In this document: piece by piece, positions 7,930 to 16,506 of the stretch
Layout: every line of letters starts with the position of its first letter
Position numbering within the stretch: the first letter of the stretch is position 1
IMG/VR virus record: IMGVR_UViG_2728369593_000027
Coordinates: 1 to 16,506 of that record
Length of the DNA stretch: 16,506 nt
Direction: 5' to 3' (one strand)
Origin: a virus
Taxonomy: Duplodnaviria > Heunggongvirae > Uroviricota > Caudoviricetes
Notes under the pieces: model-generated
The model's database searches: none
What the model saw: only the letters and a program-made list of their open reading frames with translations
Told to the model about the DNA's origin: nothing
Program-made: the position numbers and the translations under genes

Positions 7930-8383
7930 GCAGCAAATCCGGCAGGTCTGCCGCCAGTGCATGGACTGCTGCCGGGCGGGTGAAACATGGCCTCCGGACC
8001 TGGCTGAGTTTGTGGCGCTGATTTCGGAAAGCGGGGCCAATCCATTTGGTCTGACGGTGGATGCTGTGATGGAGGAGTACCGCCGCTGGCGCAATGAGTC
8101 CTGGCGATACGACGGAAGTGATAAGTACCCGTGGTCTCAGCCTGTGCTGTATCACATTTGCCTCGAGATGCGTTCAAAGGGGATTGAACGCCAGATGACC
8201 GAAGGGGAGTTAAAACGGCTTGCAGAACGGCAGCTGACGAAATGGGCAAAGCATGTTAGCAACGGCCTGAGTGTTCCGCCTGTCCGGCGACAACTGGCAG
8301 CACCCAAACGTCCTGCGGGACCAACGCCAATTGAGTTGCTGAAACAGGAATATGAACGCCGGAAAGCGGCTGGGTTTGTCTGA
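7718..8383 (+). CDS. Lambda-P-like replication protein (helicase loader family)
   Basis: 221-aa ORF, ATG at 7718 with AAGGGGGT 5 nt upstream. The C-terminal half (...FGLTVDAVMEEYRRWRNESWRYDGSDKYPWSQPVLYHICLEMRSKG...ELKRLAERQL...) parallels lambda P as I remember it. The 5' end overlaps the initiator reading frame by 212 nt. Confidence 0.7.
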   Translation: MQQHQVEPHHGQFRKFGQHVSSGNVKTDLSATETAWKLWELMGEVYSNRWTQKNGAAPSKLWIAQIGAMTEQQIRQVCRQCMDCCRAGETWPPDLAEFVALISESGANPFGLTVDAVMEEYRRWRNESWRYDGSDKYPWSQPVLYHICLEMRSKGIERQMTEGELKRLAERQLTKWAKHVSNGLSVPPVRRQLAAPKRPAGPTPIELLKQEYERRKAAGFV

Positions 8384-8415
8384 TTTGAGAAGTAATTTTT
8401 ACCGGGAGGAAATTT

Positions 8416-9162
8416 ATGGAGACTGTTTTTGACGCACTGAAAGCGATGGGAAAAGCCACGTCGGTAGAGCTGGCTGCGCGACTTGATATCAGTCGTGAAG
8501 AAGTGCTGAACGAGCTGTGGGAACTGAGAAAGGCTGGCTTCGTTGATAAAAGCGTATACACCTGGCGTGTGGCTTATAACAACGTTCAGCAGGAACAGCC
8601 AGCGCCGGCAGAACTGTCGGAAGAAACCACCACGGCAACAGTCGCTAAAATTTCGGAGTGCGATTTAACTGCGACGGTTGAACAACGCGGACCACAAACG
8701 GCTGATGAGCTGGCTACGTTGTTCGGTACAACATCACGCAAAGTGGCTTCAACGCTGGCAATGGCAATCAGCAAAGGTCGTCTGATTCGTGTAAACCAGA
8801 ACGGTAAATTTCGTTACTGCATGCCGGGCGATAAGTTACCAGCAGAGCCGAAATCCGTGCCGGTAACGGAAAATGATGGTAAAGCCTTTCCTCAGCCAGC
8901 AGGTGTTGCGTTACCAGTACAGGAAGCTGCAACACAGGAAGATATTAAAACAGAAACTGTGGCTGATATTGTGCAATCGTTGCCATCGTTTACTGAAACG
9001 CGAGCGGATGACCTGGTTTTACCATCGCTGCATATGGCAAACCGCGAATTGCGTCGGGCGAAAAGTCATGTCCAGAAGTGGGAGCGAGTCTGCGCCGCGC
9101 TGCGGGAGCTGAACAAGCACCGAGATATGGTTGCCGGGATTTGTCGGAAGTCCGGGCAATGA
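8416..9162 (+). CDS. Hypothetical protein with two winged-helix-like segments (248 aa)
   Basis: ATG at 8416 with GGGAGGA 5 nt upstream. Two segments look like winged-helix DNA-binding units (residues ~1-50 and ~85-135), followed by a basic C-terminus. No family identified. Confidence 0.6.
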
Positions 9163-10021
9163 GCGGATGGTGCAGGCCTGAAATTATGATACTAACAATG
9201 AAGGTAAAATGCATCGGCAGTCTGATTGGTCGTAGTGAGGCGGCGGTCAGGATGAAAGCCCGGGTTAAGGGAATAAGCCTGATTCTGCGGGGTAATTTTC
9301 ACCAGTCAACAAAATATCCGTAGCGCGATAACGGTCAAAAATCATGGCGCTGACACTTTTGTGCCACTGTAGATGACTGTACCTAAGTTCAGGGGAGAAG
9401 AACACGTCCGGTGGGATGGTCGGGCCAGATTTAAAGGGCAGGTCATGGCTCCAGCCAGTACGCTGGCAATGGAGGCTGCCTGGCTGGAAATTGATATGGG
9501 AACCACGCCACTCAGGGATTTACTGCCGGTCCAGAGAATAAATTCCTGTTACGGTTACACCACTGTGATCTTGCAAGTGCAGGAAAGTAGGTCTACACGG
9601 TAACGCGAGTGCGTGTAACTTTTGATGTTATTTCCGTAGAAACACCGGACAAATTTTCGCTGGCAGGTCATGCTGAAGGTATAAATCTGCAGATTATGGA
9701 CAATTACGGATATCCGGCAAGAGCCGGAAAAAGCATGCCGCCTCTAATTCTCAGTGGAAGATGGACTTGATTATACTCATTGCATTGTCAGAAATAGTTA
9801 TCCATTAAAGGCTGGCTATTCCAAACAGGATGTTGATTACAAAAATGTAATCAACATGTAAGGTTTATACTCTTCAATATGCGTATAATTTTCCTTATTT
9901 TGTTAACTTTAAATAACAAGCTATGCACGAGGTAAAGTCGGATAAGTTTATCTGGATGTAATATATATTATTTGTAGTGTTTATAACTTTATTTCATGAT
10001 AACCAATAAAAGGAGTTTTTT

Positions 10022-10780
10022 ATGAGGAACATAATGGCAGGTTTTTTAATATTCCTGTCTTCTGCTGCTTATGCTGATATCAATCTGTATGGTCCTGGTG
10101 GCCCGCATACAGCCTTGCTTGATGCAGCCAAACTTTATGCCGAAAAAACAGGTATTATAGTGAACGTTCATTACGGCCCACAGAACAAATGGAATGAAGA
10201 TGCCAAAAAAAATGCAGATATCTTGTTTGGCGCATCAGAACAATCTGCTCTGGCTATCATTCGGGACCATAAAGACAGCTTCAGTGAAAAAGATATTCAG
10301 CCTCTTTATCTGCGAAAAAGTATTTTACTGGTAAAGAAAGGTAATCCTAAAAATATCCGGAGTATTGACGACCTGACCAGACCCGGGATTGGCGTAATTG
10401 TTAATGATGGTGGTGGTACCAGTAATACATCAGGCACTGGCGTCTGGGAAGATATTGCCGGACGTAAAGGGAATATAGAAACTGTCGCCGCAATCCGAAA
10501 AAATATTATTTTATATGCGCCCAATAGCGGAACTGCACGTAAGGCTCTTGAGAATCAGCCTGAAGCAGATGTCTGGATAACCTGGGCTGACTGGGCAGCC
10601 AGTAATCCAGAAATTGGTGATGTCGTGGAAATAGCGCCAGACTACGTGATATGGCGTGATATGAACATTACAGTACGTCAGGATGCAAATGATGAAACCC
10701 GTCGATTTGCAGAATGGCTACAAACCGATGAAGCGGCGCCTGCATTCAAAAAATATGGCTGGACCAGGAAAGGCACTTGA
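10022..10780 (+). CDS. Orphan periplasmic solute-binding protein (ModA/PBP2-like) with signal peptide
   Basis: 252-aa ORF, ATG at 10022 with AGGAG 6 nt upstream. N-terminus MRNIMAGFLIFLSSAAYA has a signal-peptide pattern. C-terminal ...FAEWLQTDEAAPAFKKYGW resembles ModA-type binding proteins. No permease or ATPase gene adjacent; AT-rich upstream region. Confidence 0.75.
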   Translation: MRNIMAGFLIFLSSAAYADINLYGPGGPHTALLDAAKLYAEKTGIIVNVHYGPQNKWNEDAKKNADILFGASEQSALAIIRDHKDSFSEKDIQPLYLRKSILLVKKGNPKNIRSIDDLTRPGIGVIVNDGGGTSNTSGTGVWEDIAGRKGNIETVAAIRKNIILYAPNSGTARKALENQPEADVWITWADWAASNPEIGDVVEIAPDYVIWRDMNITVRQDANDETRRFAEWLQTDEAAPAFKKYGWTRKGT

Positions 10781-11118
10781 CATCCTCCACGTCCTTCAGA
10801 ACGTGGATTCTTTTTCCGGATGCCGCGCCAGCGGCATGTAGGGGCAGCTCACAAAACGGAAAAAATTGTACGCTAAGCCTCGCCAGGTGAACTGAATTCA
10901 TTCCGATATGGGAATTCCCATATCGGACGAAAACGGCTTGCTGTAACGGCAGAGTTAAGTAGAATTGCTGCGGGTGCTTGAGGCTATCTGCCTCGGGCAT
11001 GAACACCAACGGCAGATAGATAAAAGCCCCACCCGACTATAAATCGAAGTGAGGCCCCTATATGCTCGTCACATATAGATTGCCTCTTACGGACCGAAAG
11101 GTCAAGGAGAAGCAGGCT

Positions 11119-11274
11119 ATGAAGCAGCAAAAGGCGATGTTAATCGCCCTGATCGTCATCTGTTTAACCGTCATAGTGACGGCACTGGTAACGAGGAAAG
11201 ACCTCTGCGAGGTACGAATCCGAACCGGCCAGACGGAGGTCGCTGTCTTCACAGCTTACGAATCTGAGGAGTAA
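11119..11274 (+). CDS. hok: Hok/Gef-family type I toxin (51 aa)
   Basis: ATG at 11119 with AGGAG 9 nt upstream. Translation MKQQKAMLIALIVICLTVIVTALVTRKDLCEVRIRTGQTEVAVFTAYESEE is a typical Hok (single transmembrane helix, conserved Cys, RIRTGQTEVAVF). An in-frame upstream ATG at 11062 would add 19 residues. Confidence 0.85.
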   Translation: MKQQKAMLIALIVICLTVIVTALVTRKDLCEVRIRTGQTEVAVFTAYESEE

Positions 11275-11342
11275 GAGACCCGGCGGGGGAGAAATCCCTC
11301 GCCACCTCTGATGTGTCAGGCATTCTCAACGCACCCGCATTT

Positions 11343-11369
11343 AACCCGCTTCGGCGGGTTTTTGTTTTT
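11343..11369 (+). terminator. Rho-independent terminator downstream of hok
   Basis: Stem CCCGC (11345-11349), loop TTCG, stem GCGGG (11354-11358), then TTTTTGTTTTT. Confidence 0.6.
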
Positions 11370-11494
11370 ATTTTCAACGCGTTTGAAGTTCTGGGCGGTG
11401 CCGGAATAGAATCAAAAATACTTAAGTAGCGCGCAGGGATAAGAGGGATGGACCCCGAACAGGGGAGTGCTATTTATCTGGAAGGATTCTGTTG

Positions 11495-11755
11495 ATGAAA
11501 ATCGAAGAATTACGTGAAATTTTTACTGAAGATGGCCTCTATACTGTGCGCGTTGAGAATGGTGCTATTGTCAGTCACTGCCGTATTAAATGTTTACAAT
11601 CTAAACAAAGGAAGAGTGGTGCTGCGTTAATTTATTTTGTGGATGAACTTGTGACAGATGGTTTTATTTTGCGTGAAAATGAATTTGTCACATCATTGCA
11701 GTCTCTGAAAGAAGCTGGGCTTAAGGCTGGTTTTTCTGCTTTTGAAGATGAGTAA
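11495..11755 (+). CDS. Rem-like small protein (86 aa)
   Basis: ATG at 11495 with GGAAGGA 8 nt upstream. Occupies the position between hok and the DUF968 gene that rem holds in K-12 Qin; AT-rich codon usage. Function unknown. Confidence 0.5.
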   Translation: MKIEELREIFTEDGLYTVRVENGAIVSHCRIKCLQSKQRKSGAALIYFVDELVTDGFILRENEFVTSLQSLKEAGLKAGFSAFEDE

Positions 11756-11821
11756 ATTCATCTACAATTCAGCACAGGGCTGAACCCCTGTTGAGTAACA
11801 CTGTGCCACCGGAGAAAACCG

Positions 11822-12100
11822 ATGGCGCAAAATTCCAGACCACACAATTCTGATAATTCAGCCGTCTTTGCCAGCAGGCACGGGCGGCGTTCTCATGCAT
11901 TCAAATATGACTGGTACCAGCATGACCCATGCACTGAAGAACAGGCCGAATGGCTGATTCAGAACTACCGCAGGCGTGGGTATGAGTTTAGGAAAGCCCT
12001 CAGCCTCGATTATCGTCACTGGATAATCTACGTCAGGCTCCCTTATTCCGAACGCCCACCGCGTCCGTCCCGCACATTCCAGCAACGCATCTGGAGGTAA
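11822..12100 (+). CDS. Hypothetical protein (92 aa)
   Basis: ATG at 11822 with GGAGA upstream; stop TAA at 12098-12100 immediately precedes the GTG of the next gene, suggesting translational coupling. No family recognised. Confidence 0.5.
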   Translation: MAQNSRPHNSDNSAVFASRHGRRSHAFKYDWYQHDPCTEEQAEWLIQNYRRRGYEFRKALSLDYRHWIIYVRLPYSERPPRPSRTFQQRIWR

Positions 12101-12101
12101 C

Positions 12102-13151
12102 GTGCGGGTATTACTTCGACCTGTTCCGGTACCGGAACTTGGGCTGGTGGTCCTTAAGCCGGGCCGTGAATCCATGCAGGTATTTCATAACCCTCGAGTG
12201 CTGGTGGAGCCGGAACCAAAAAGCATGCGCGGTCTGCCGTCCGGAGTCGTTCCTGCCGTTCGCCAGCCGCTGGCGGAGGATAAATCATTACTGCCATTTT
12301 TCAGCGATGAGCGGGTGATTCGTGCTGCTGGCGGCGCTGGTGCACTGTCTGACTGGCTGTTGCGTCATGTCAAATCCTGCCAGTGGCCTCATGGTGACTA
12401 TCATCACAGTGAAACCGTCATACATCGTTACGGTACCGGCGCGATGGTGTTGTGCTGGCACTGCGACAACCAGCTGCGTGACCAGACCTCTGAATCACTC
12501 GGGCAACTTGCTCATCAAAACCTGTCAGCATGGATGATTGACGTCATACGCCATGCAATGAATGGCACACAGGAGCGGGAATTATCTCTGGCTGAATTAT
12601 CCTGGTGGGCGGTCCGCAATCAGGTGGCGGACGCGCTACCGGAAGCTGTATTACGTCGTTCACTGGGGTTGCGTGCGGAAAAAATCCGCTCCTTGTACCG
12701 CGAAAGCGACATCGTACCGGGAGAGCAGACCGCCACCAGCATACTGAAGCAGCGCACAAAAAATCTTGCGCCGTTGCTTCACACCCACCAGCCACAGAAC
12801 CCAGCACAGGAAAAGGCGGTGGTCAGCATTACCGTTGATCCGGAGTCTCCGGAATCCTTCATGAAACGACCTAAACGTCGCCGCTGGGTAAATGAGAAAT
12901 ACACACGCTGGGTAAAGACACAGCCGTGTACATGTTGTGGTAAGCCAGCAGACGATCCCCATCACCTGATTGGTCACGGTCAGGGCGGAATGGGGACAAA
13001 ATCTCACGATATTTTCACGCTACCGCTGTGTCGGGAGCATCACAACGAGCTTCATGCGGATCCGCTGGCGTTCGAAGAAAAGCATGGTTCCCAGGTTGAT
13101 TTAATTTTTCGTTTTCTTGATCACGCCTTTGCAACCGGCGTGCTCGGGTAA
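12102..13151 (+). CDS. ydfU: DUF968-family nin-region protein (YdfU-like) with C-terminal Cys/His-rich HNH-like motif
   Basis: 349-aa ORF, GTG at 12102 with GGAGG upstream. C-terminus ...CTCCGKPADDPHHLIGHGQGGMGTKSHDIFTLPLCREHHNELHADP... is the Cys/His signature I associate with DUF968/YdfU; sits just before rusA. Confidence 0.7.
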   Translation: MRVLLRPVPVPELGLVVLKPGRESMQVFHNPRVLVEPEPKSMRGLPSGVVPAVRQPLAEDKSLLPFFSDERVIRAAGGAGALSDWLLRHVKSCQWPHGDYHHSETVIHRYGTGAMVLCWHCDNQLRDQTSESLGQLAHQNLSAWMIDVIRHAMNGTQERELSLAELSWWAVRNQVADALPEAVLRRSLGLRAEKIRSLYRESDIVPGEQTATSILKQRTKNLAPLLHTHQPQNPAQEKAVVSITVDPESPESFMKRPKRRRWVNEKYTRWVKTQPCTCCGKPADDPHHLIGHGQGGMGTKSHDIFTLPLCREHHNELHADPLAFEEKHGSQVDLIFRFLDHAFATGVLG

Positions 13152-13163
13152 AAGAGGTTACTG

Positions 13164-13523
13164 ATGCGTATAGAGTTTGTTTTGCCTTACCCGCCGACGG
13201 TGAACACCTACTGGCGACGTCGTGGCAGCACATATTTTGTATCAAAAGCCGGTGAGCGTTATCGCCGGGATGTGGCACTTATTGTTCGCCAGCAGCGGCT
13301 GAAATTAAACCTGTCCGGAAGGCTGGCGATAAAGATTATTGCCGAGCCACCGGATAAGCGCCGCCGTGACCTGGACAATATTCTGAAAGCGCCGCTGGAT
13401 GCGCTGACGCATGCGGGGGTGCTAATGGACGATGAGCAGTTTGATGAAATCAATATTGTACGTGGTCAGCCAGTATCTGGTGGACGGCTGGGTGTGAAGA
13501 TTTACAAAATTGAGAGTGAGTGA
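13164..13523 (+). CDS. rusA: Holliday-junction resolvase RusA
   Basis: 119-aa ORF, ATG at 13164 with AAGAGG upstream. Contains the RusA catalytic region ...PDKRRRDLDNILKAPLDALTHAGVLMDDEQ.... Canonical position before Q. Confidence 0.85.
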   Translation: MRIEFVLPYPPTVNTYWRRRGSTYFVSKAGERYRRDVALIVRQQRLKLNLSGRLAIKIIAEPPDKRRRDLDNILKAPLDALTHAGVLMDDEQFDEINIVRGQPVSGGRLGVKIYKIESE

Positions 13524-13531
13524 GCGTAAAT

Positions 13532-14083
13532 ATGATATATCCGGAAATTACAGGCAAAAGCGGCGAACATTTACGCCTGAACACGCTGGAAGCAGTCTGG
13601 ATCCAGGGGAAATTACGGATGTGGGGGCGGTGGTCGTATATCGGTGGGGGTAAATCCGGAAATATGTTTAACCGGTTACTGGTTTCGAAAAAGCTGACGA
13701 AAACAGCAGTTAATGAGGTTTTACGCAGAATGAAGAAATCCGGGCTGGAAAAACCGGAACTTGAGGCATTTTTTCGGGATATGACAAGAGGAAAGCAGAA
13801 GAGCTGGTTGTCACATTGTACAGACACAGAGGCGTTGATTATTGATCGCGTTATCAGTGAGGTGCTTGGGGAATATCCCGGGCTAATCAATGTTCTCCGG
13901 CAAAGGTACGAAGGACGGGGAATGAGCAAACTGAACATGGCCGAAAGGTTAAATGCAGATCATCCTGATTGGTCGTTGGTTACGTGCAGACGCCGAATTG
14001 ATCAATGGTTGGGGGTATCTGAATTTATGTTATATGCCCCCATGCGCATGGCTTTTGTTACAGAGAAAAATGTTGCAAACTGA
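13532..14083 (+). CDS. Q-like late-gene antiterminator (assigned by position and context)
   Basis: 183 aa from the ATG at 13532 (track ORF begins at an overlapping GTG 13520). Lies immediately after rusA and directly upstream of a short leader ending in a strong intrinsic terminator, which is the Q/PR'/tR' arrangement. Family not verified. Confidence 0.6.
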   Translation: MIYPEITGKSGEHLRLNTLEAVWIQGKLRMWGRWSYIGGGKSGNMFNRLLVSKKLTKTAVNEVLRRMKKSGLEKPELEAFFRDMTRGKQKSWLSHCTDTEALIIDRVISEVLGEYPGLINVLRQRYEGRGMSKLNMAERLNADHPDWSLVTCRRRIDQWLGVSEFMLYAPMRMAFVTEKNVAN

Positions 14084-14162
14084 TCAATAAACTGCTTCAA
14101 TCCGTATAAGCTTCGCAAAGCTGTATCGCGAGGCGAAACGCAAGTTTTTTTCGCACAAGGAA

Positions 14163-14184
14163 GCCACCGGAAGGTGGTTTTTTT
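14163..14184 (+). terminator. tR'-like intrinsic terminator downstream of the Q-like gene
   Basis: Stem CCACC (14164-14168), GGAA tetraloop, stem GGTGG (14173-14177), then T7 (14178-14184). A second T7 run at 14145-14151 follows a weaker stem. Confidence 0.65.
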
Positions 14185-14307
14185 GTGTCCGCGATATACA
14201 GTAGCGCAATAAATTCGCTGGTGGTTATTAATACCGTTCTTTCAGCTTGCTGGCTTTTTCGACAAGAGTTATTGGTGTGTCACGTTAACCGGAAAAGGGA
14301 AAAAGAC

Positions 14308-14505
14308 ATGCTAAAACAGCAGGATATGACAGAAACCGCCAGAGTGGTGTTTAATGAATTAAGCGTTACCGAACCGGCGACAGTCGGGGAGATAGCGCAG
14401 AATACTTACCTTTCACGCGAACGCTGCCAGTTAATACTGACCCAGCTGGTTATGGCGGGTCTGGCAGACTATCAGTTCGGTTGTTACAGACGCCTTCCGC
14501 AGTGA
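14308..14505 (+). CDS. Small hypothetical protein (65 aa), possible winged-helix regulator upstream of the methyltransferase
   Basis: ATG at 14308 with AAGGG 8 nt upstream. The track ORF starts at GTG 14185, directly abutting the terminator T-run with no RBS, so the ATG is preferred. Stop TGA at 14503-14505 lies inside a terminator hairpin. Confidence 0.45.
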   Translation: MLKQQDMTETARVVFNELSVTEPATVGEIAQNTYLSRERCQLILTQLVMAGLADYQFGCYRRLPQ

Positions 14506-14516
14506 AGGCTTTTTTA
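14492..14516 (+). terminator. Intrinsic terminator overlapping the small-ORF stop codon
   Basis: Stem GCCTTC (14492-14497), loop CGCAGT, stem GAAGGC (14504-14509), then TTTTTT (14510-14515). Confidence 0.5.
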
Positions 14517-14655
14517 TTTGTGGTAAATGGGCGGCTGGTGGGTGTTAGGGGCACCCACCAGCCATCTGCTCATGCGTTGGGTTCACAAGCAAACCTCAGG
14601 CCCACTGCTTTGCGCAAAAGCAGAATGAGCCTATCAGAGACAGGCTTAATGATCC

Positions 14656-15705
14656 ATGCTTAATACTGTAAAAATATCCAGTTGTGAGTTAATCAACGCC
14701 GACTGCCTGGAATTTATCCGGTCGTTACCCGAAAATTCTGTTGACCTGATAGTCACGGACCCGCCGTACTTTAAAGTGAAGCCTGAGGGCTGGGATAACC
14801 AGTGGAAGGGCGACGATGATTACCTGAAGTGGCTGGACCAGTGTCTGGCGCAGTTCTGGCGGGTGCTGAAACCTGCCGGAAGTCTTTACCTGTTCTGTGG
14901 TCATCGCCTGGCATCTGATATCGAAATCATGATGCGTGAACGCTTCAGTGTGCTGAACCATATTATCTGGGCGAAGCCGTCCGGACGCTGGAACGGATGC
15001 AACAAGGAAAGCCTGCGGGCGTATTTCCCCGCCACAGAGCGCATTCTGTTCGCGGAACATTATCAGGGGCCGTATCGCCCGAAAGATGCCGGGTATGAGG
15101 CGAAGGGCAGGGAACTGAAACAGCATGTGATGGCCCAGCTGATTTCTTACTTTCGTGATGCACGCGCGGCCCTGGGGATAACGGCAAAACAGATTGCAGA
15201 TGCCACAGGAAAGAAAAACATGGTGTCGCACTGGTTCAGTGCCAGTCAGTGGCAGCTACCGAACGAAAGCGATTATCTGAAATTACAGTCGCTGTTTGCC
15301 CGGGTGGCAGAAGAGAAACATCAGCGGGGAGAACTGGAAAAGTCCCATTACCAACTGGTCAGCACATACAGTGAGCTGAACCGGCAGTATATGGAACTGC
15401 TGAGTGAATATAAAAATTTGCGGAGGTATTTCGGTGTGACGGTGCAGGTGCCGTACACCGATGTGTGGACGTATAAACCGGTGCAGTACTATCCAGGGAA
15501 ACATCCGTGCGAAAAACCGGCAGAAATGCTGCAGCAGATAATCAGCGCAAGTAGTCGTCCTGGTGATCTGGTTGCGGATTTTTTCATGGGGTCGGGTTCA
15601 ACGGTAAAAGCGGCGATGGCACTGGGGCGTCGTGCGATTGGTGTTGAGCTGGAGACCGGACGTTTTGAGCAGACAGTCAGGGAAGTTCAGGATTTAATCG
15701 TTTGA
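14656..15705 (+). CDS. Orphan DNA amino-methyltransferase, beta class (probably N6-adenine; N4-cytosine not excluded)
   Basis: 349-aa ORF, ATG at 14656. Motif IV DLIVTDPPY near the N-terminus and motif I DFFMGSGST near the C-terminus (order IV then I = beta class). No restriction endonuclease gene adjacent. Confidence 0.85.
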   Translation: MLNTVKISSCELINADCLEFIRSLPENSVDLIVTDPPYFKVKPEGWDNQWKGDDDYLKWLDQCLAQFWRVLKPAGSLYLFCGHRLASDIEIMMRERFSVLNHIIWAKPSGRWNGCNKESLRAYFPATERILFAEHYQGPYRPKDAGYEAKGRELKQHVMAQLISYFRDARAALGITAKQIADATGKKNMVSHWFSASQWQLPNESDYLKLQSLFARVAEEKHQRGELEKSHYQLVSTYSELNRQYMELLSEYKNLRRYFGVTVQVPYTDVWTYKPVQYYPGKHPCEKPAEMLQQIISASSRPGDLVADFFMGSGSTVKAAMALGRRAIGVELETGRFEQTVREVQDLIV

Positions 15706-15754
15706 AACGGATGAGATTGCAGAATTAATTACGCACCATTATTATTCTGCTCCC

Positions 15755-15830
15755 GGCCCTTTAGCTCAGTGGTGAGAGCGAGCGACTCATAATCGCCAGG
15801 TCGCTGGTTCAAATCCAGCAAGGGCCACCA
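15755..15830 (+). tRNA. ileZ: tRNA with CAU anticodon, ileX-like (tRNA-Ile2; Met not excluded)
   Basis: Hand-folded cloverleaf: acceptor GGCCCTT/AAGGGCC, D-arm GCTC-AGTGGTGA-GAGC, anticodon loop CUCAUAA, T-arm GCTGG-TTCAAAT-CCAGC, discriminator A, encoded CCA. Very similar to E. coli ileX as remembered. Confidence 0.8.
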
Positions 15831-15837
15831 TCACATA

Positions 15838-15914
15838 CCGCCATTAGCTCATCAGGAAAGAGCGCCAGCTTTCGAAGCTGGTTGCGCGGAGTTCGGGTCC
15901 CCGAAGGCGGTCCA
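15838..15914 (+). tRNA. argN: tRNA-Arg-like, anticodon UCG as folded (argN-like); imperfect stems
   Basis: Hand-folded: acceptor CCGCCAT/AAGGCGG with one A-A mismatch; anticodon arm CCAGC-TTTCGAA-GCTGG; T-arm CGGAG-TTCGGGT-CCCCG with one A-C mismatch; encoded CCA. Begins 7 nt after the previous tRNA. Confidence 0.65.
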
Positions 15915-15927
15915 TTATCTGTATCCT

Positions 15928-16004
15928 GCGTTGTTAGCTCAGCCGGACAGAGCAATTGCCTTCTAAGCAATCGGTCACTGGTTCGAATCCAGTACAACGC
16001 GCCA
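15928..16004 (+). tRNA. argO: tRNA-Arg (anticodon UCU, reads AGA/AGG), argO-like
   Basis: Hand-folded: acceptor GCGTTGT/ACAACGC, D-arm GCTC...GAGC, anticodon arm ATTGC-CTTCTAA-GCAAT, T-arm ACTGG-TTCGAAT-CCAGT, discriminator G, encoded CCA. Confidence 0.85.
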
Positions 16005-16019
16005 CACTTATTTTCCCTG

Positions 16020-16044
16020 GCTCGCTTTTGCGGGCTTTTTTTTT
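16020..16044 (+). terminator. Rho-independent terminator after the tRNA cluster
   Basis: Stem GCTCGC (16020-16025), loop TTTT, stem GCGGGC (16030-16035, one G-U pair), then T9 (16036-16044). Confidence 0.6.
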
Positions 16045-16132
16045 AAATGTCTCACAATTCAGGCGGTTGACTGTTGTCTGGTTTGCGGGGAGTTTGTTAA
16101 AAGAAACTGGCATGGTGAATCCCCCTGTGCGG

Positions 16133-16506
16133 CTGTCTCTTGATCAGATCTCCTGATCAAGAGACTTCATCACCAGGTAACCCTCAACCATATCCTGAAG
16201 TCTGAACCAGCCATCCCACATGACTACCCAACCGGGGCGACCGGTGCGTTTGCTGTCATGCCATCGCCCCAGTTTCGCCAGTTTCAGACAGGCCCATTTC
16301 AGTGTCGGCATCTGTGACGGAAGCGGTTTTCCTTCCAGCTTAACCCACAGCAGTTTCCACTCTGTCGGCGTCAGTATTTTCTCACAGCTGTCATTTTGTG
16401 TTTCTTCACTGATACCGCCCTGCCGCAGGCCCAGCACCCGCACCGCGATAAACGCCTTGATAACCACCATGCGCTCGAGGTTATCCCGGGTCTGCATTCG
16501 CACGAT
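16133..16506 (-). mobile_element. IS50-like (IS4-family) insertion sequence, inside-end portion; element continues beyond the window
   Basis: CTGTCTCTTGATCAGATCT at 16133-16151 is identical (19/19, from memory) to the Tn5/IS50 inside end. The transposase stop codon lies within it, as in IS50, and the gene body extends rightward out of the window. Confidence 0.75.
16144..16506 (-). CDS. IS50/Tn5-like transposase, C-terminal fragment (5' end outside window)
   Basis: Frame is open from the window edge to stop TGA at 16144-16146. C-terminal residues ...DNLERMVVIKAFIAVRVLGL...TLKWACLKLAKLGRWHDSKRTGRPGWVVMWDGW... parallel the Tn5 Tnp C-terminus (...DNLERMVSILSFVAVRLLQL...GGFMDSKRTGIASWGALWEGW...) but are clearly diverged. 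Confidence 0.8.
   Translation of the reverse strand: MVRMQTRDNLERMVVIKAFIAVRVLGLRQGGISEETQNDSCEKILTPTEWKLLWVKLEGKPLPSQMPTLKWACLKLAKLGRWHDSKRTGRPGWVVMWDGWFRLQDMVEGYLVMKSLDQEI

Follow-up and report, generated by a model that had tools for sequence, protein, structure and literature searches.

Three previously described modules, paa, hok/sok and rem, beside a fimbrial gene remnant: a very probable mosaic in a Qin/OI-57-type lambdoid prophage

A known prophage segment composed of separate modules

We analysed a 16.5-kb stretch of viral DNA (IMG/VR record IMGVR_UViG_2728369593_000027, positions 1 to 16,506; the window hereafter, with a mean GC content of 48.8%) and focused on a block that carries three plus-strand open reading frames (ORFs) at 10022-10780, 11119-11274 and 11492-11755, which we identify as paa (adfO), hok and rem. 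A sequence-only reading of the same DNA had placed these ORFs at the same positions, and had regarded 9780-11760 as a single AT-rich cargo block holding an orphan solute-binding protein, a membrane toxin and a small Rem-like protein. From our analysis, the region 9328-11755 is, with high probability and with the mechanisms proposed below included, a mosaic of three independent and previously described modules in a Qin/OI-57-type lambdoid prophage, together with one gene remnant. The picture of one cargo block is thus corrected to that of three independent modules, of which rem would be a component of the phage switch.

The carrier is a lambdoid prophage whose annotated neighbourhood places its integration site beside a tRNA-Ser gene and mtfA. 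The first part of the prophage runs in the order integrase, exonuclease, dicB, DicF, ydfABC, DicA-like repressor and Cro/DicC, and the second part in the order YdaT, O-like, P, DUF1627, the block, ydfU (DUF968), rusA and Q-like. The location that had been claimed for the block, between replication and later genes, is therefore correct, with the O/P-like genes and DUF1627 on one side and ydfU, rusA and the Q-like gene on the other.

A megablast search of 9600-11900 against 5426 complete E. coli genomes returned 100% matches, and at least 80% of the interval was found in 564 of these genomes. The features annotated under the 100% matches are 'paa: AcfC family adhesin Paa', 'hokD', a 'fimbrial protein' pseudogene and hypothetical proteins. 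An identical arrangement, paa / gef / rem, is present in deposited Stx2a-phage/PPompW records, where the genes are labelled 'porcine attaching-effacing associated protein Paa/adherence factor', 'gef: phage maintenance protein' and 'rem'. O-island 57 (OI-57) of O157:H7 holds adfO (z2053, which resembles Paa) and ckf (z2054, a cell-killing factor associated with phages), and the two are reported as invariably co-occurring (PMC8565820). We mapped the published adfO and ckf typing primers (PMC4366395) on the window: the adfO primers match perfectly at 10096-10597 (product of 502 bp, 501 bp as published), and the ckf primers map at 11062-11263 with one mismatch (202 bp, 201 bp as published). This mapping identifies ckf as the mok/hok ORF and the block as the known adfO-ckf pair.

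The block is thus the known paa/adfO-ckf(hok)-rem segment of OI-57-type prophages and is nothing new as a finding. The sequence-only reading had itself raised the possibility of a common, already annotated cargo set with a known role, and this is what the published Paa/AdfO and ckf and the 564 genomes amount to. Indeed, paa/adfO and ckf are standard virulence-typing markers of O-island 57 in enterohaemorrhagic and enteropathogenic E. coli (EHEC and EPEC), and the role of Rem was published in 2023. The Paa/AdfO gene (z2053) of OI-57 or CP-933O-type elements in EHEC, EPEC and porcine E. coli is the same gene as the paa of the window; the O157:H7 copy is 99.7% identical at the DNA level, and OI-57-type prophages share the neighbours ckf/hok, rem and ydfU as well as the prophage type. 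Taken as a whole, however, the window has an identity of only ∼95% with the O157:H7 prophage and of 98% with pig strain DCE7, which makes it another mosaic variant of the carrier prophage.

The three genes differ in their distribution and in their signals. hok/sok and rem lie adjacent (at least 80% of 10930-11760) in 1827 of the 5426 genomes, 611 carry paa and 564 hold the full block, while on IncF plasmids and in the aga locus of E. albertii paa is accompanied by neither hok nor rem. Hairpins resembling terminators stand behind paa and hok, a promoter-like site lies ahead of each of hok and rem, and an RBS-like motif (ribosome-binding site) stands ahead of each of the three ORFs, as had been claimed. 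The evidence says that the three genes are separate modules and not one functional unit, and the reported co-occurrence of adfO and ckf is explained by the insertion of paa beside a pre-existing hok/sok-rem backbone in one prophage lineage. The statement that the whole block lies in AT-rich DNA was only partly right: the 205 bp upstream of paa (25.9% GC), paa itself (43.9%) and rem (37.1%) are AT-rich, but the hok/sok module has 51.8% GC, which is above the window mean. Similarly, the block had been described as the part of the window least explained by the phage life cycle, which suits paa, a moron outside that cycle, but not rem, as part of the phage switch.

Boundaries and mobility of the paa cassette

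The paa (adfO) moron cassette extends over ∼1.0 kb of the plus strand (9828-10843) and consists, in order, of a left-edge palindrome, an AT-rich leader, an RBS, the coding sequence (CDS) and two 3' hairpins. It shares 86-89% DNA identity with IncF plasmids of porcine and bovine enterotoxigenic and Shiga toxin-producing E. coli (ETEC/STEC), in which the Paa protein is 92-94% identical. This homology spans only 9818/9828 to 10843 and the flanks are unrelated, with repA/yacAB adjoining the cassette in one plasmid and IS1 and the sta1 enterotoxin gene in another. The left edge is marked by the perfect palindrome TTGATTACA-AAAA-TGTAATCAA (9833-9854), which occurs once in the window, with zero expected by chance, and is the first sequence conserved across three cassette contexts, including the prophage and IncF-plasmid copies. 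The motif AAGGAG (10010-10015) lies six bases ahead of the paa ATG. Directly 3' of the paa stop codon, a terminator scan found a terminator-like hairpin followed by a T-run (10786-10807, plus strand), and a second hairpin, ATGCCGC/GCGGCAT, lies on the same strand at 10820-10837; both hairpins are conserved in the plasmid cassettes. The GC content of the cassette is 41%.

On the chromosome of E. albertii NBRC 107761, a paa homologue of 87% identity (L008:8001-8762) is situated within the aga (N-acetylgalactosamine phosphotransferase system) locus and homology to the window is confined to the CDS. In that genome, the homologue lies downstream of a 155-aa secreted ORF with no family assigned. From the plasmid and E. 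albertii occurrences, it follows that paa is a classical moron moving on its own; it is a discrete insert of deviating composition, has its own terminator and occurs in other genetic contexts. With the cassette delimited to ∼1.0 kb, paa can be seen to move among prophages, enterotoxin plasmids of the IncF group and the chromosome of E. albertii. One observation weighs against a self-sufficient cassette: two scans, one of them relaxed, gave nothing like a sigma-70 promoter ahead of paa, and no -35/-10 pair matching at least 8 of 12 positions is present in 9800-10025, although a perfect TATAAT stands at 9884-9889. That paa is expressed autonomously in the lysogen is suggested by literature on strain EDL933 rather than by the sequence.

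To the left of the cassette lies a decayed PapH-like fimbrial minor-subunit gene (9328-∼9818, plus strand), and the left boundary proposed earlier for the block, 9780, falls within this gene and not at the start of the cassette proper. Three-frame translation of the remnant shows frameshifts and internal stops, and PGAP annotates it as 'fimbrial protein, frameshifted; internal stop' in identical and near-identical records. Its DNA is 85% identical to an intact gene of 195 aa (L006:6931-7518), which comes next behind papB- and papA-like genes in an operon of the chaperone-usher type, and the remnant has weak matches to papH. The paa cassette starts at ∼9818, the point at which homology with the intact gene breaks off, with the last ∼13 codons replaced; the C-terminus of the annotated pseudogene is therefore cassette sequence. 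A common origin of paa and the fimbrial remnant was rejected, as the plasmid cassettes begin at 9818-9828 with no fimbrial sequence and the fimbrial homology ends at ∼9818. The remnant and the cassette were joined secondarily.

Family membership and probable action of Paa

The paa/adfO CDS (10022-10780, plus strand; annotated as paa in 100%-identical records) encodes 252 aa identical to WP_001815900.1, for which the RefSeq product name is 'AcfC family adhesin Paa'. The profile search that the sequence-only reading had proposed gave Pfam SBP_bac_11 (E=1.6e-34), and a phmmer search of PDB sequences gave PEB3 of C. jejuni (E=4.1e-82) and AcfC of V. cholerae (E=1.5e-81) over residues 11-248, with 54% and 52% identity, respectively. 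Residues 1-18 (10022-10075, plus strand) have the features of a Sec signal peptide (R2, a hydrophobic core at 4-12 and A16-Y-A18|D19), and mature PEB3 crystal chains start at the residue aligned with Paa 19. A binding protein with a signal peptide had thus been rightly recognised. The protein is without any cysteine and is therefore not a lipoprotein. The paa CDS has a GC3 of 35% and is 99-100% conserved in about 577 records.

In an alignment of 77 AcfC/PEB3/Paa proteins, Paa keeps all 53 positions that are conserved in at least 95% of the sequences, including the motifs YGxGGP (23-28), NTSGTG (135-140), WED (142-144), SG (169-170) and DxWITW (183-188). These loops probably line the ligand cleft, as the class II binding-protein fold, and not coordinates of Paa, would suggest. 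The fold assignment itself draws on the more than 50% identity to solved structures; a single-sequence AlphaFold2 model was too poor to be used (pLDDT 39.5). By sequence, then, Paa would be a Sec-exported class II periplasmic binding protein of the AcfC/PEB3 family.

AcfC (PDB 4jb7) and PEB3 (PDB 2hxw, 3fj7, 3fjg) are 52-54% identical to Paa over the whole mature chain, and share with it the architecture of signal peptide plus binding protein and the family-invariant loop residues. None of the three is encoded with an ABC transporter partner, and all are linked to gut colonisation. They differ in genetic vehicle, which is a lambdoid prophage or IncF plasmid for Paa but the VPI-1 island or the core chromosome for AcfC and PEB3; the glycosylation sequon of PEB3 (DFNVS) is missing from Paa; and the ligands are 3-phosphoglycerate for PEB3 and sulfated glycans, with mucin chemotaxis, for AcfC.

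Membership in the ModA or sulfate-binding families was rejected, with only 22.7 bits for the sulfate-binding protein model (cut-off 288) and 18.6 bits for ModA TIGR01256 (cut-off 62.5) in NCBIfam. With the ModA, CysP and Sbp models, Paa reaches 18-23 bits, where the cut-offs range from 62 to 470 bits. The broad Pfam type (SBP_bac_11, class II periplasmic binding proteins) is shared with ModA, CysP and Sbp, as is a weak local similarity at Paa residues ∼96-204, in the anion-binding loop region, but the scores are far under the family cut-offs and Paa and its relatives are without an adjacent permease or ATPase. The earlier assignment of the protein to the ModA type hence does not hold, and Paa belongs to the AcfC/PEB3/Paa family; its mode of action is probably that of an anion-binding protein, but by these scores it falls outside ModA/Sbp.

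In published work, AcfC resides in the periplasm, bound heparin, chondroitin sulfate and mucin when tested by ELISA, and is required for mucin chemotaxis, with no adhesion mediated to the cell lines tested (PMC5976639). PEB3 was introduced as an adhesin and is considered to transport or bind 3-phosphoglycerate; according to a review, the PEB 'adhesins' may work in an indirect way, in a transport role. As summarised in reviews, paa contributes to attaching-effacing lesions and a paa mutant adheres less to explants, while an adfO mutant adheres less to HeLa cells and secretes fewer proteins (PMC8565820). In strain EDL933, contents of the bovine rumen and rectum induce paa/acfC (PMC8524897).

We propose that Paa is cleaved at A18|D19 and then resides in the periplasm, from which it may be partly released. 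It would bind an anionic ligand, either an oxyanion of sulfur or phosphorus or a group, from the host or on a metabolite, that is sulfated or phosphorylated, in an inter-domain cleft predicted to be formed by Y23-G-x-G-G-P28, N135-T-S-G-T-G140, S169-G170 and D183-x-W-I-T-W188. It would feed no ABC importer, and would promote adherence and colonisation most likely in an indirect manner (sensing, chemotaxis or envelope effects), as for AcfC. Both the ligand class and the periplasmic action are suggested by analogy with these homologues. Of the roles offered by the sequence-only reading, nothing supports receptor masking; signalling and scavenging overlap with the published AcfC and PEB3 data, which concern homologues only. 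The ligand and mode of action of Paa-family proteins are in any case a question for the whole field and not special to this window.

In published work Paa is called an adhesin; this is at odds with a role that is purely periplasmic and indirect, and weighs against our proposal. Conceivably, Paa could be a true surface adhesin that binds a host receptor directly, the binding-protein fold being a mere scaffold. The reduced adherence of paa and adfO mutants to explants and HeLa cells (as given in reviews), the original description of PEB3 and the binding of AcfC to heparin, chondroitin sulfate and mucin would fit this alternative. Paa, however, has a Sec signal only, with neither a lipobox nor an anchor for the outer membrane, nor any feature of autotransporters or fimbriae. 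AcfC was found in the periplasm and gave no cell adhesion (PMC5976639), the review allows PEB 'adhesins' to act indirectly, and even free-living bacteria from the sea and from soil keep the cleft for small ligands invariant. In the adfO mutant, secretion of other proteins was lost as well (PMC8565820), which points to an indirect effect. We do not think that Paa is a classical surface adhesin and consider direct receptor binding unlikely, although it deserves some weight.

Environmental relatives of Paa

An environmental clade (Rhodobacteraceae, Aureimonas, Paracoccus, Bordetella and others) carries homologues 43-48% identical to Paa. These occur in free-living Alpha-, Beta- and Gammaproteobacteria and retain the invariant cleft. 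Their neighbours include an extracytoplasmic function (ECF) sigma factor (29 loci), a putative anti-sigma factor (19 loci; designated by its position beside the sigma gene only, with no Pfam match), a LysR regulator (19 loci), a SLAC1/TehA anion channel (14 loci), a SnoaL-like protein (14 loci), a SorA-type molybdenum sulfite oxidase (13 loci) and a probable c-type cytochrome (10 loci; recognised by eye from two CxxCH motifs), the last two suggesting a sulfite dehydrogenase of the SorAB type. At several loci all these neighbours are on one strand. Example loci are L085:3432-8528, L087:165-5256 and L046:2488-7475, within the range L029-L087.

These neighbourhoods point to handling or sensing of sulfur oxyanions in the family, and for Paa itself such a role is speculative. 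A broader idea, that Paa, AcfC and PEB3 represent a widespread class of ABC-independent periplasmic sensors or handlers of sulfur oxyanions and are neither adhesins nor parts of importers, is one that we regard as doubtful. If it were true, the prophage paa would give E. coli an input for sensing sulfite, sulfate or sulfated mucin that steers colonisation, and the palindrome at the cassette edge (9833-9854) would be a regulatory operator of paa.

The hok/mok/sok locus

To the right of the cassette, a complete hok mRNA unit is predicted at 10938-11366 (plus strand) from Rfam, alignment with K-12 hokC, folding, and promoter and terminator scans. It contains the 51-aa hokD-type toxin CDS (11119-11274, plus strand, annotated hokD) and, from the ORF list, a mok-like in-frame extended ORF of 70 aa (11062-11274, plus strand), which is the 'ckf' marker ORF of OI-57. 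The 70-aa ORF scores E=2.9e-23 with Pfam HOK_GEF and E=1.7e-32 with phrog_251 ('MokW-like host killing'), and 50 of the 51 Hok residues (98%) are identical to K-12 HokD, in agreement with the membrane toxin recognised earlier. The in-frame layout of mok and hok is that of mokC/hokC of K-12, and the region aligns with K-12 hokC/mokC/sokC at 81% from the promoter -10 through hok. The promoter scan gave TTGCTG-16-TAGAAT (10938-10965, plus strand), with the 5' end at ∼10972, and the terminator scan gave a strong intrinsic terminator (11343-11360, plus strand). The 395-nt transcript folds at -161.7 kcal/mol (z=-6.75), and the minimum free energy structure shows the tac-fbi closure, in which the 5' segment 10972-10983 pairs with the 3' segment 11324-11336. 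The Rfam sok/hok leader RF01794 is matched in full length at 10972-11121 with 103.9 bits (gathering score 59). A candidate isrK-like small RNA (sRNA) at 11283-11364 was rejected (25.8 bits, gathering score 50), as it corresponds to the hok 3' UTR (untranslated region) and terminator.

A Sok-like antisense RNA is predicted over the mok start and Shine-Dalgarno sequence (11020-11070, minus strand) from the alignment with sokC of K-12, and the minus strand at ∼11020-11070 folds into a hairpin followed by UUUUAU. Certain details weigh against this part: the RF01794 'sok' match lies on the sense (plus) strand, the scan of the minus strand gave no Sok promoter above threshold, and the coordinates of the antisense RNA are those that we infer from the K-12 alignment. 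Taken by its sequence, the locus is best regarded as a complete hok/mok/sok type I toxin-antitoxin system. The stable hok mRNA would be closed by 5'-3' pairing, translation of the mok frame would be coupled to that of hok, and the Sok-like antisense RNA would act over the mok start, so that hok/sok may serve as an addiction or host-killing module of the prophage. The toxin family, the in-frame mok, the leader, tac-fbi and the terminator are all as in hok/sok of plasmid R1, hokC/mokC/sokC, ckf and MokW.

Homology with K-12 Qin begins only at 11105, 14 nt ahead of the hok start codon, and K-12 hokD is therefore without the sok/mok leader. K-12 hokD (relF) is located behind relBE; the copy in the window keeps the leader and has no relBE. 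In the same comparison, K-12 Qin has relBE, ydfV and flxA where the window prophage has replication genes, the fimbrial remnant and paa. It could be argued that the locus in the window is a decayed relic that contributes nothing, since the hok loci of the K-12 chromosome are commonly inactivated, K-12 hokD has lost its entire leader and an IS186 copy abuts hokC. With every canonical element present, the Rfam model matched over its full length and the toxin only one residue off K-12 HokD, we hold such decay to be improbable. The prophage would thus hold a fully intact hok/sok where K-12 Qin has only a truncated hokD.

rem and the DicA-type switch

The third ORF is a rem homologue of 87 aa (11492-11755, plus strand; 86 aa from the ATG at 11495), which matches phrog_340 and is 74% identical to K-12 Rem (E=7e-43) with a 4-residue insertion; neither Pfam nor NCBIfam gave a match. 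As in K-12, it lies between hokD and ydfU, and a promoter-like site is present ahead of it at 11383-11412. The window also encodes, on the minus strand, a DicA-like repressor 61% identical to DicA (5670-6077), the DicF sRNA (4541-4592; Rfam, 76.7 bits) and, downstream of DicF as in Qin, the annotated dicB. A sub-threshold STnc100-like match directly adjoins DicF, and the minus-strand intervals concerned are 4541-4592 and 4334-4543.

K-12 Rem is an antirepressor of DicA that induces dicBp 165-fold and causes filamentation dependent on DicB/DicF (Ragunathan et al., J Bacteriol 2023, PMC10448788). The description of the ORF as a Rem-like small unknown protein was apt as to the likeness, but the published role shows that Rem is not unknown cargo. 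This role and the presence of a DicA-like repressor, dicB and DicF in the window lead us to place rem in a regulatory circuit rather than among the cargo: by analogy with K-12, rem would be the antirepressor of the prophage's own DicA-type repressor and part of the lysis-lysogeny and dicBF control circuit, the Rem variant presumably acting on the repressor variant of the window. Against this pairing, it must be said that it is an extrapolation, as the repressor is only 61% identical to DicA and the Rem homologue only 74% identical to K-12 Rem. The Qin element of K-12 and the window prophage have in common the position and similar size of Rem, a DicA-like repressor, a DicC/Cro-like protein, dicB and DicF; Qin, however, has lost its replication genes, which the window prophage keeps. 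Control of rem by SOS, as for the Gifsy antirepressors, is unsupported, with no LexA box (CTGT-N8-ACAG, one mismatch allowed) between hok and rem.

Linkage of the three genes and solitary encoding of paa

The sequence-only reading had asked whether paa, hok and rem work together and had suggested a comparison of synteny. An operon-like cargo module acting as one would agree with their co-orientation and adjacency, with hok/rem adjoining nearly all chromosomal copies of paa (564 genomes with the whole block, against 582 chromosomal paa places), and with the report that adfO always occurs with ckf (PMC8565820). The linkage is nevertheless one-way, as hok/sok and rem have no need of paa in their larger set of genomes and paa stands alone on IncF plasmids and in E. 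albertii. Further, terminator-like hairpins lie between paa and hok and the strong terminator lies between hok and rem. The hok unit comes with a promoter-like site of its own and a self-contained mRNA fold, and each component has a separate established role. Given these separate transcription signals and different distributions, joint action of the three genes as one module is very improbable, and three separate modules is the reading that we retain.

For the binding protein, it had been claimed that no transporter partner is encoded. There is no ABC transporter gene in the window, and we extended the search to 80 family loci from distinct species, probing 8 kb on either side with E. coli ModB, ModC, CysA, CysU and CysW. 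At 68 of the 80 loci no ABC ATPase or permease match lies within ∼8 kb; at the other 12 a match lies within that distance but never adjacent, the nearest being 2.2 kb off. The claim thus extends to the family: solitary encoding is the norm for AcfC/PEB3/Paa and not special to the prophage, and it bears on how these 'adhesins' really work. The lack of an adjacent ABC partner across the family, with paa intact, also argues that paa is not a captured operon fragment, a possibility that the sequence-only reading had mentioned. That Paa derives from a host ABC-transporter operon (ModA or sulfate type) by illegitimate recombination, and is either functionless or scavenges for a chromosomal transporter, is suggested by its fold class, that of ABC substrate-binding proteins, by the weak sub-threshold matches to sulfate and molybdate binding proteins and by the adjoining PapH-like remnant, which shows illegitimate capture at the same spot, but is barely plausible against the ModA, CysP and Sbp scores far below cut-offs, the equally solitary PEB3, AcfC and other family loci, the full-length paa with signal peptide, RBS, terminators and all family-invariant residues, and its conservation across records.

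Wider prophage context

The window as a whole is mosaic. The interval 9600-11900 is 100% identical to pig strain DCE7 and 1412-14302 is 98% identical, while the ends of the window, 1-1411 and 14303-16506, differ from DCE7; the best match over the whole window (∼95%) is to O157:H7 prophages. The exonuclease gene, a single CDS of 2472 nt in DCE7, is split in the window (1422-3833) into three minus-strand ORFs in different frames (1422-2876, 2896-3543 and 3573-3833). The alignment between the window and DCE7 has 18 gap openings over 12.9 kb. The split exonuclease is either a pseudogene or a product of indel errors in the assembly.

Near the right end, a 349-aa ORF (14656-15705) is followed downstream by three tandem tRNA genes on the plus strand (15755-16004; a Met-type with CAT anticodon, Arg-TCG and Arg-TCT). 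Among the genes under the match in the O157:H7 prophage records that match best is a DNA-methyltransferase, which is not tied to the 349-aa ORF. The tRNA trio resembles what we take to be the ileZ-argN-argO set of Stx-type lambdoid phages.

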